From Octopus vulgaris (lineage: Eukaryota): 64,000 bases of DNA. The translations under genes and the position numbers were made by a program. Position 1 is the first letter of the stretch; the number at the start of each line of letters is the position of its first letter. Where the stretch lies: the NCBI GenBank assembly GCA_951406725.2, contig OX597829.1:20832001-20896000 (forward strand). The letters run 5' to 3'. The notes beneath the pieces are model-generated. The model saw only the letters and a list, made by a program, of their open reading frames with translations. It had not been told where the DNA came from and did no database searches. Shown piece after piece: positions 2,929-8,171 of the stretch.

Positions 2929-3384
2929 TATAAAACCGAGCATTTCACAAAAACTCACTAGAACCACCCAGCGAACTTCCACCATGGGTCATCACAATTG
3001 CTTAAGGTAAAAATGAATTCCTCGCTCTTTCGGAAACATCAATCTTCTGTATTGACCACTTTCCACCACTTTGATCTGTTTTTTGTATTGAATACGTATC
3101 GCCACCGTGGGCCACTGCATCGAACACTTTGAACATATACTTCAAACTATATATCAACTATACATGAACTATATATCAACTATACATGAAATCTAAGATG
3201 TCTGACTCCGTTGTGTATTATAAATGAATTTCTTGTGTTTGACGGCATGAGCTGTCTTTTTTTATATATAACTTTTTTTGATAAGGTTTATTTCAGGAAC
3301 TGAAACATGTTATAATGTATATATAAAAATTAAAAATTGTATAATACAGCAGCATTTTCGAACTTCATTTTTTACAAATATATA
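2929..3384 (+). repeat. 5' pseudo-LTR of Penelope-like element
   Basis: Same sequence as 7716-8171 (offset 4787). Confidence 0.95.
3278..3311 (+). ncRNA. Hammerhead-ribozyme-like motif in pLTR (second copy 8065-8098), U3-A8 core variant
   Basis: TTGATAA, stem II GGTTY/GAACT, GAAA, palindromic CATG, TT. Stem I is weak. Confidence 0.5.
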
Positions 3385-3443
3385 CCTACTCGTATACGAG
3401 CTAATCCTATTATAAATATCATATCACGTACGAGCTCCCGAAA

Positions 3444-4825
3444 ATGCCTGCTAAAAAAGACACCAACGACATCTCCTCAATAAATGAAGAGATACTGAAA
3501 GAATTGAAAAGCATAAATTCAAACCTAACAGCAGTGTTAAACAAACTCAACTTAACGCCTCGACCTTCTACACAAACTAACGAGGAAACCGAATCGAATA
3601 AAACACCCTCCGAAATATTCGAGAAAGTTGAAAATCTATGCGATACAATGACGACATTCTTCACAAACTTTACGAAACAAGAGCAACAAAAAGAAGGAAC
3701 ACATGAGAAGAACCGAGCAACTTCAACATTACAAATAAAGAACCAAGTCCTCCCCCAATGGAGAACACTACAGCGAAACAGAAAATTCGCTTTTTGGAAA
3801 ATGATACAAAATCAGAATAAAGCAGAGATTTACCAAAAATGGCTAGACTCAACACCCCTAGTCATACCCCGTAAATTACAAATCAAGCCCATCTCGGAAG
3901 AACCAGAAGAACAAAGAAAACTTAGAGAAAAAATGTCATTAGAAAAAATGAAGATAGAAATAGAACTACTTAAGCTGAGAGCTAAAACGAATGAAGAAAA
4001 AGTAAAAACCATAGACGAGGAAATCAACGAAGAAGTCATCAAACTAATAGACGACAACAATACTGAAACATTACCAGCACTATGGAATGAAGAATGTGAA
4101 AAAGAGGAACTTAAGTCCCTCCAACGATGGGAAAAGAGCGCCGTCTGGTTTCTAGATTATGAAACCAACTTCAAAAATGAACACATATCCAACAACCCCT
4201 TCATAAAATTAAGCAAATCAAAACCAAATACCAATAGAACGGAACAACCACCAAGAAATCCTACCACACTCTACACCAGAAAAGTACACCTAAAACACAC
4301 CCCACACTACCTACACCAACCCCAAAACACCTACAGAGGCCCACCACACCAGTTCGAAAATAGACATACCAACAGAGCAAAACAACCACCAAGAAATCCA
4401 AACACACTCTACACCAGAAAAATGCATTTAAAACGCACCCCACACTACCTACACCAACCCCAAAACACCATTCCACGAACCTAAGAGCCACAACATACAA
4501 TACTATAAAATACAACCCACATAACCAAACCAAAACGCTACTACCAAACATCCACCCCAGGAACCAACCATACAACCATAACAAACAACAAATGCACTAC
4601 GGAGGAAACAACTACCAACACAATATACCTGAGGAACTAAGACGTAACACTAGGTTCAACAACAGACTCCAGAACAGAGCACCACAAACTCACTCTGACA
4701 ATTATAACAACATGAGACAGATAAATAATAGCTTTGAACATAACTACACCAACCATTTTTTAGACCCCACACACAGGAACAAGGACACACGATGGCAAAG
4801 GACAAACAAAAGAAACCTCAGGTAA
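3444..4825 (+). CDS. Penelope ORF1-like protein (coiled-coil N-half, P/H/N/Q/T-rich C-half); 3444-4484 plus a -1-frame continuation to 4825
   Basis: 346-aa ORF with heptad-like E/K/L segments. The -1 frame is open from before 4442 to 4825 with similar composition. Internal 138-bp-period duplication at 4230-4469. Confidence 0.65.
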
Positions 4826-7089: not shown

Positions 7090-7257
7090 AACAAAAGATA
7101 AGTCCTCCGAAAGGGAGAATCGGGGTTCCACCACGGCCGCTGCTTCAAACAGACACTCACTCTGACGGAAATATGCCTTAGTAAAAAAGGAAAAAAATTC
7201 TTTCGTGCAAATCTGACCCTGATACATACGATACAGCTACGGGTCAGACCCGATTCT

Positions 7258-7722
7258 GATTGGTCAACAAGTTGATGACGTCTAGCTCTGCTAGAATGGA
7301 CAGGATACAAACAGGGGACAGTCATTAGTCAGAATATTGATGACGTCCTTTTCTGCTTGAATAGTCACCTAACAAGTACAGACAGGGAGCAGATCTAATG
7401 TAGCTATAAGTCGTGATTGGGCAGAATCTGGATGACGTCCCGCTCTGCTTGACTAACGAAGCGACTGGTCAAAACAGGAGACAAACAAGAGGCAGATATA
7501 ATGCAGCGATTGGTCAAAATAATGATGACGTCCCGTTCTACTTGACTAACGAAGCGACTGGTCAAAACAGGAAACAAACAAGAGGGAGTTATAATGCAGC
7601 GATTGGTCAAAATAATGATGACGTCCCGTTCTACTTGATTAAAGCCACCTAACGAAACGATTGGTCAAAACATTGATGACGTCACGCTACGCTAGATTGA
7701 CCACCTAACAGGCATTATAAAA
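7258..7722 (+). promoter_or_regulatory. Array of about 6 ATTGG(CCAAT)+TGACGTC(CRE) units (93-bp period in the middle) ending in TATAAAA
   Basis: Units start near 7258, 7323, 7415, 7508, 7601 and 7659; TATAAAA at 7716. Function is inferred. Confidence 0.6.
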
Positions 7723-8171
7723 CCGAGCATTTCACAAAAACTCACTAGAACCACCCAGCGAACTTCCACCATGGGTCATCACAATTGCTTAAGGTAAAAA
7801 TGAATTCCTCGCTCTTTCGGAAACATCAATCTTCTGTATTGACCACTTTCCACCACTTTGATCTGTTTTTTGTATTGAATACGTATCGCCACCGTGGGCC
7901 ACTACATCGAACACTTTGAACATATACTTCAAACTATATATCAACTATACATGAACTATATATCAACTATACATGAACTCTAAGATGTCTGACTCCGTTG
8001 TGTATTATAAATGAATTTCTTGTGTTTGACGGCATGAGCTGTCTTTTTTTATATATAACTTTTTTTGATAAGGTTCATTTCAGGAACTGAAACATGTTAT
8101 AATGTATATATAAAAATTAAAAATTGTATAATACAGCAGCATTTTCGAACTTCATTTTTTACAAATATATA
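7716..8171 (+). repeat. 3' pseudo-LTR of Penelope-like element
   Basis: Same sequence as 2929-3384. Confidence 0.95.

Follow-up and report, generated by a model that had tools for sequence, protein, structure and literature searches.

Does an endonuclease-bearing Penelope-like element (PLE) from an octopus carry a second gene of its own, and if so, how does it express its polymerase? Little is known about how PLEs, the sister group of telomerase, work. The element in question lies at positions 2929 to 8171 of a 64,000-nucleotide stretch of the Octopus vulgaris genome (assembly GCA_951406725.2, contig OX597829.1, positions 20,832,001 to 20,896,000, forward strand; hereafter the window), which contains no other copy of it. 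Unless stated otherwise, features of the element are on the plus strand, and positions are numbered from the first base of the window. The initial annotation saw a young, complete element with a gag-pol-like layout, in which an upstream open reading frame (ORF1) precedes a frame for reverse transcriptase (RT) and GIY-YIG endonuclease (EN), and proposed an EN-containing (EN+) family with its own ORF1. According to PMC6431247, PLEs come in two forms, one with a single ORF for RT and EN and the other with two ORFs and no EN; canonical elements are given as single-ORF in PMC8557442, PMC11167929, and PMC4209133; these and the other papers are cited for the portions available to us.

The open RT-EN frame, which spans 4744-7089 and is -1 relative to ORF1, encodes the annotated 765 residues counted from an in-frame ATG at 4792. 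Both domains are matched in Pfam (RVT_1, E = 1e-6; GIY-YIG, E = 4e-7). As is characteristic of EN+ PLEs, a PLE-type RT, with the DKG, GxKF, and YLDD motifs conserved in the RT alignment, is followed by a C-terminal GIY-YIG domain (~6796-7059), which is preceded by a CX4CxxC linker (~6682-6708). Among 50 aligned sequences, C631, C636, C639, C675, C678, and H697 are invariant and H714 is nearly so, and the element has the combination that marks Neptune elements, a CX2-5CxxC linker before the EN and a CCHH motif within it. The spacer between linker and GIY is long, unlike that of Nematis, and in a by-eye comparison matches the Neptune rows of Fig. S2 in PMC8557442. From the linker and CCHH residues and the spacer, rather than from a tree with named reference elements, we classify the element as a Neptune-type PLE; Neptune itself is paraphyletic in PMC8557442. 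Naiad and Chlamys elements carry an N-terminal EN, whereas the EN is C-terminal here, and Athena, Coprina, and Terminon elements have no EN domain, whereas GIY-YIG is present here. The element behaves as a Neptune-type PLE in all but one respect: in place of the single ORF of EN+ PLEs, there is a conserved second ORF.

ORF1 (3444-4825) has 466 codons in other copies of the family; in the window copy, a 19-bp deletion behind 4464 leads to a premature stop at 4482-4484. The product is predicted to consist of an N-terminal helix, a three-helix core (residues 91-260), and a basic, disordered tail rich in N, Q, R, H, and P. AlphaFold2 predicts long helices, with a predicted local distance difference test (pLDDT) score mostly above 90 over residues 91-260, and a disordered tail; the core modeled alone reaches a mean pLDDT of 94.6. 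The part of ORF1 that encodes the tail contains a duplication with a 138-bp period (4228-4469; 104-bp copies, 89% alike) that is missing in an older subfamily. The protein may oligomerize through coiled coils and act as a ribonucleoprotein scaffold.

A profile built from 5 ORF1 sequences matched 870 protein clusters at E <= 0.001 and 404 at 1e-10. Look-ups of 20 clusters gave a single one with an organism-named member, a hypothetical protein from a pearl oyster. When 102 ORF1 members were compared with Pfam, each family matched at most 1 of them, and ORF1 found no match in Atlas (best 0.76) or among PDB sequences. Foldseek against PDB and viral structures gave no significant fold match, returning generic helical bundles alone, and the best hits of a VIA fold search (Z 8.6) were generic three-helix bundles. 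Viral contigs yielded no relatives, and a protein search, itself weak, found no long fused ORF1-RT proteins.

We asked how ORF1 is linked to the RT with an RT N-terminal query, which recovered 63 metagenome loci; in 45 of them, 600 nt or more of sequence precedes the RT. An ORF1 homolog precedes the RT at 26 of these 45 loci; the remaining 19 include decayed relatives of families inside the RT clade described below and elements outside it. The last ORF1 match lies in the +1 frame relative to the RT at 21 of the 26 loci and, as in the window, out of frame at the other 5, probably because of indels. A quick, midpoint-rooted RT tree of 48 rows combined 5 proteins with 43 of 45 loci with enough RT sequence (the window included; L070 and L100 were left out as duplicates). 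All 18 ORF1-bearing rows fall inside one 34-row RT clade with a Shimodaira-Hasegawa-like approximate likelihood ratio test (SH-aLRT) support of 100. The upstream homologs and their restriction to a single RT clade bear out the proposal of an EN+ PLE family with its own ORF1. The named RT relatives sit in genome records of mollusc symbionts. PLEs were also seen within prokaryotic records (L001-L042 and proteins P0033, P0044, P0064, and P0078; SUP05, Stappiaceae, Thiodiazotropha, and Solemya symbionts), with many copies in one Stappiaceae record; they probably represent host contamination. None of the 42 GTDB loci matched the ORF1 profile.

Substitutions were compared in 10 ORF1 pairs in all. 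In 6 pairs of mid-distance relatives, the proportion of nonsynonymous differences (pN) is 0.24-0.37 versus a saturated synonymous proportion (pS) of 0.73-0.90, and 3 distant pairs have a pN of about 0.5. One closer pair speaks less clearly for constraint, with a ratio of nonsynonymous to synonymous rates (dN/dS) of 0.40 for ORF1 and 0.45 for its RT. With homologs upstream of the RT in relatives and pN far below pS, the expectation that ORF1 would prove conserved and under selection was upheld. The alternative, in which A-rich DNA merely leaves a neutral frame open or ORF1 was inserted separately, draws on the lack of a Pfam family and of a significant fold match. It is refuted by the 870 homologous clusters, the linkage to one RT clade, the low pN, the confident model, and two length variants elsewhere that both keep the frame, and we give it next to no credence. 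ORF1 is almost certainly a genuine, conserved second gene of the element.

How is the RT-EN frame reached from this gene? Within the overlap of the two ORFs, and in the phase of ORF1, lies the slippery heptamer T TTT TTA (4756-4762). The same arrangement, an X XXY YYZ heptamer in upstream-ORF phase overlapping an open -1 frame, is found in 23 of the 26 ORF1-bearing relatives (22 of 24 families). From the background rate, 4.8 such sites would be expected over all heptamers and 0.3 if T6 alone counted, and the off-phase counts are 3 and 6. The heptamers are TTTTTTA in 13 relatives, TTTTTTG in 8, CCCTTTT in 1, and TTTAAAC in 1. When TTTTTT[AG] is sought no more than 150 nt from the RT start at 28 loci, 24 occurrences are in phase 0 and 1 is off phase, and in 7 of the 23 heptamer-bearing relatives an RT-frame stop lies immediately ahead of the heptamer. 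At the protein level, FL or FF occurs within the last 45 residues of 68 of 77 long ORF1 homologs, compared with 3 and 7 in control windows. More distant elements have GGGTTTT or GGATTTT at similar junctions, with no ATG. Letters that change while the XXXYYYZ pattern and its phase are kept are what a ribosomal -1 shift predicts. We consider it likely, from this pattern of conservation, that RT-EN is made mainly as an ORF1 fusion through -1 ribosomal frameshifting at T TTT TTA.

In HIV-1 gag-pol, frameshifting at U UUU UUA, followed by a 3' stem-loop, connects a structural ORF to an overlapping -1 polymerase ORF. The octopus element shares the identical heptamer and the overlapping -1 polymerase ORF but has no conserved 3' stem-loop, capsid, protease, or integrase.

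Several observations weigh against frameshifting. Three of the 26 relatives depart from the pattern: L082 has one change in the run, L092 has an RT stop after it, and L084 reads GTATTTT and has its own ATG. The stimulatory stem-loop or pseudoknot that typically lies 3' of a frameshift site is missing, in that no conserved structure was found at 28 loci (mean z -0.3 to 0.1), 12 of the 28 are pseudoknot-capable versus 8.0 expected, and the window RNA downstream of the heptamer is unstructured (z +2.1). A G follows the heptamer in the window and in all 13 TTTTTTA relatives, as it would in a splice acceptor. Finally, ATG 4792 lies in a strong context, and in all 7 of the closest RT homologs the gene call places a Met ahead of the conserved block and then a residue whose codons start with G. 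As a separate observation, a G stands 18 nt past the heptamer start, in purine-rich surroundings, at 20 of 28 junctions, possibly as a non-structural stimulator.

The G after the heptamer raises the possibility of splicing, in which the T-run serves as a polypyrimidine tract with an acceptor ending at 4763. ORF1 would then occupy a facultative intron (3007-4763), and the spliced RNA would fuse a Kozak ATG at 2984 to the RT or expose ATG 4792. The window offers a candidate first exon, an upstream ORF (uORF) of 8 codons in strong Kozak context (2984-3010) with a donor-like site at its end (GT at 3007). Its donor phase and the acceptor phase fit the RT frame by eye, for which the chance is one in three, and spliceosomal introns are known in the PLE 5' region (PMC8557442). 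However, the AG that all 13 TTTTTTA relatives possess is missing at 10 of the 23 heptamer sites, with neighboring AGs varying in phase, and two sites read CCCTTTT and TTTAAAC. In 20 of the 68 ORF1 homologs with FL or FF, the next residue has no codon starting with G. Furthermore, among the 12 relatives printed, none has a counterpart of the uORF or a cassette of upstream ATG and donor ahead of ORF1. Splicing is a doubtful route to RT-EN, yet a serious competitor of frameshifting in this family. A start of its own is slightly less plausible still: RT-EN of this subfamily would initiate at ATG 4792, by leaky scanning or by termination-reinitiation at the ORF1 stop (4823-4825), with the heptamer as a relic or second route. 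Its context (A at -3, G at +4), the called Met and G-starting second codon of the 7 nearest homologs, and the conservation in P0002 and P0003 of the ORF1 Trp whose codon provides the TG G all fit such a start. Against it, no in-frame ATG lies between the upstream stop and the conserved RT start in 24 of the 26 DNA relatives, several of which have no near-cognate start either. L045, L049, L053, and L060 have a similar Trp at CTG, so the ATG may be a by-product, and the stretch from the ORF1 start to 4792 contains 20 ATGs. Gene callers also write Met for non-ATG starts; among 120 RT homologs, the called start is upstream of the conserved block in 53 and inside or after it in 67.

Insertion of one U by the polymerase at the T6 run would likewise join the two frames, in RNA, and T6 is indeed the commonest form (21 of 23). 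Such transcriptional slippage does not depend on codon phase, yet 24 runs are in phase against 1 off it, and CCCTTTT, TTTAAAC, GGGTTTT, and GGATTTT preserve the ribosomal pattern instead of the run, which makes this explanation very unlikely. Different routes to RT-EN may coexist.

If ribosomal frameshifting is the main route, most ribosomes would end at the ORF1 stop, and the helical protein so made, with its basic and disordered tail, would be abundant and would probably serve as the particle's RNA-binding scaffold. A few would slip back one base at 4756-4762 and produce a fusion of ~1,220 residues (446 + 775), which would nick (TA)n and reverse-transcribe. The U UUU UUA heptamer by itself can yield low-level frameshifting, as in work on HIV, and a low fusion ratio would follow from the missing 3' stimulatory structure. 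Transcription would start behind CCAAT/cAMP response element (CRE)-like repeats in the 3' untranslated region (UTR) of an upstream tandem unit.

Is the window copy itself able to follow this route? To place copy variants on the window, we used contigs of 8 public runs, whose status as RNA is a guess. Contigs of 5 of the 8 runs (X1, X4, X2, X17, and X19) have 19 additional bases behind 4464. Another form, 119 bases shorter and with only one copy of the 138-bp duplication, is present in X19 and X20. X21 and X22 have no coverage at 4464; X21 is the only raw-read run, and the element is not in it. By frame arithmetic, done by hand for the shorter form, both variants bring the tail into the ORF1 frame. 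Because both other forms keep the tail in frame, we read the window copy as a 19-bp deletion and ORF1 of the family as 466 codons. The 346-residue ORF (3444-4484) and the separate tail frame up to 4825 that the initial annotation described are both present; as a family feature the split does not stand, since the shift is this deletion, and by the same token the element is not complete or intact. In the window copy, the deletion would halt ribosomes ~270 nt ahead of the slip site, and this copy could consequently make RT-EN via ATG 4792 or splicing only. Divergence from the window is ~0-2 bases per 100 for the long contigs shown and ~6-10 per 100 for the older subfamily. Toward the 3' end, contig depth climbs to 30-200, from ~5-11 at the 5' end; this suggests 5' truncation of copies. 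On sequence evidence, the family is recent and prefers microsatellites, but the window copy is defective, with ORF1 ending at 4484. We thus view the window element as a Neptune-type PLE copy that is recent yet defective and belongs to a family with two overlapping genes.

To what extent has such a layout been described? The element resembles the Neptune clade as portrayed in PMC8557442 and PMC3846280 in its C-terminal GIY-YIG domain with CCHH, CX2-5CxxC linker, and long spacer, and also in its direct pseudo-LTRs (pLTRs) with a putative minimal hammerhead, the optional tail, a suggested 5' truncation of copies, and (TA)n bias. It differs from those single-ORF descriptions in having a conserved ORF1 whose overlap with the -1 RT frame contains a slippery heptamer. 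A separate helical ORF1 is shared with the EN-deficient Athena and Terminon elements (PMC6431247, PMC8557442); those have no EN and attach to telomeres, whereas the element here has an EN, no telomeric repeats were seen with it, and no pseudoknot is supported. The view that canonical EN+ elements have a single ORF agrees with published descriptions, but two-ORF EN+ PLEs are in print, namely a killifish Neptune element and Chlamys-2_cBra. The killifish element, repeat.CL27, has an unexplained 420-nt ORF1 upstream of RT-EN (PMC12602865). Compared by description, this ORF differs from ours in being non-overlapping; it is reported to resemble nothing else, and the main text does not use the word frameshift. 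Chlamys-2_cBra as well as Chlamys-5_cBra (PMC8557442) are likewise EN+ PLEs with an upstream ORF1, which carries a zinc knuckle in Chara Chlamys elements (Chlamys-2_cBra). Neptune-like PLEs of fish and molluscs can also have esterases (PMC5408684). The legend to Fig. 1 of PMC8557442 mentions, for a clade it does not name, that a frameshift accompanied by a pseudoknot can separate ORF1. Apart from this legend, a frameshifted ORF1 in EN+ PLEs was not found described in the literature, a search that lay outside Repbase and Dfam; the portions available of PMC9004415, PMC6515669, PMC5718144, and bioRxiv 10.64898/2026.07.22.740005 add nothing further on the layout. It is possible, though we lean toward doubting it, that the two-ORF EN+ layout has already been drawn or catalogued somewhere. 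A frameshift with a pseudoknot is a feature of Athena elements.

In L003, L006, L095, and L096/L100, which lie outside the clade of the window, an ORF in the +1 frame precedes an RT frame that lacks an ATG, and GGGTTTT or GGATTTT occurs in phase. These junctions sit 39-360 nt ahead of the RT N-terminal block, and L006 and L095 extend to the EN region. Pseudoknots behind six distant heptamers were not significant, and one hairpin reached a z of -2.2. L087 (1895-2923) and L093 (434-1786) have upstream ORFs of 343 and 451 residues that overlap the RT in the same frame relation, but these RT frames start at an ATG of their own; L093 contains an in-phase GGGAAAC as well. In L069/L070 and L072, the RT is extended in frame by 203-260 N-terminal residues that form a similar-looking helical domain; fused and split forms therefore coexist among distant PLEs. 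Homology of ORF1 to the upstream or fused helical domains of distant PLEs found no support: hhalign with 6 sequences gave a probability of 0.2% and aligned just the IP(R/K)x motif.

We entertain, with nearly as much belief as doubt, a wider and previously undescribed pattern: a large part of Neptune-type EN+ PLEs would be gag-pol-like, with an unannotated helical ORF1 and a conserved -1 shift on a bare heptamer, other lineages would have a similar helical domain fused in frame, and the published single-ORF Neptune proteins from these lineages would be N-terminally incomplete. A common clade that combines ORF1, an EN, and a conserved recoding site breaks the division, as published accounts draw it, between one-ORF EN+ and two-ORF EN-less elements. 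The active enzyme is probably a 1,200-residue fusion made at a low ratio, which decides what to express for a Neptune reconstitution. ORF1 also defines a protein family that lacks annotation and comprises at least 870 clusters, currently filed as hypothetical host or bacterial proteins, and its junctions provide many natural -1 sites that seem functional without 3' RNA structure.

The borders of the element are direct repeats of 456 bp, the 5' pLTR at 2929-3384 and the 3' pLTR at 7716-8171, with 3 mismatches (3117, 3191, and 3289) and no gaps, nearly identical as annotated. The 5' copy starts at TATAAAA and has none of the CCAAT/CRE-like repeats found ahead of the 3' copy. Unstranded (TA)n tracts, called from the sequence, flank the element on the left (2915-2928) and right (8172-8240), and the left tract merges into the TATA box, so a target duplication is unreadable. 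The proposed targeting of (TA)n holds in part: (TA)n borders both ends, and the loose contig ends at 3384, 3419, 4156, and 6767 continue into TA or TG microsatellite, but several other ends do not. Each pLTR contains, by pattern match, a putative minimal hammerhead-like core with stem II (3278-3314, with a palindromic helix III, and 8065-8101), of the U3-A8 variant described in PMC4209133; the monomer fold is not significant and cleavage is only putative. An Rfam scan detected neither a hammerhead nor a frameshift element. The first 35 nt of the ORF1 leader (3385-3443) resemble the optional PLE "tail," and one contig stops at 3419, 35 nt beyond the pLTR, and then continues as (AT)n. The 456-bp repeats and this contig match the EN+ PLE pattern of pseudo-LTRs from a partial tandem with an optional tail of 30-40 bp. 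A hairpin predicted in the leader is not significant (z -0.9).

The 3' UTR (7090-7715) contains tandem repeats with 5 ATTGG and 6 TGACGT motifs and extends up to the TATA of the 3' pLTR. TGACGT clusters occur at the matching position in several relatives, and the region likely acts as promoter of the next tandem unit downstream. The initial annotation mentioned neither these repeats nor the heptamer, the hammerhead-like cores, or the uORF with its donor-like site. The same 9-mer, CATTTTTTA, stands at the pLTR end (3367-3375) and at the slip site (4754-4762), possibly by chance.

Elsewhere in the window, broken minus-strand frames at 29-1562 resemble, by eye, a long interspersed nuclear element (LINE) fragment with apurinic/apyrimidinic (AP) endonuclease and RT, accompanied by a 39-bp tandem at 1806-1922. 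Broken frames at 9303-10881 resemble, again by eye, a remnant of a hAT-type transposase, and an inverted repeat with 107-nt arms that are 93% complementary lies at 11271-11568.

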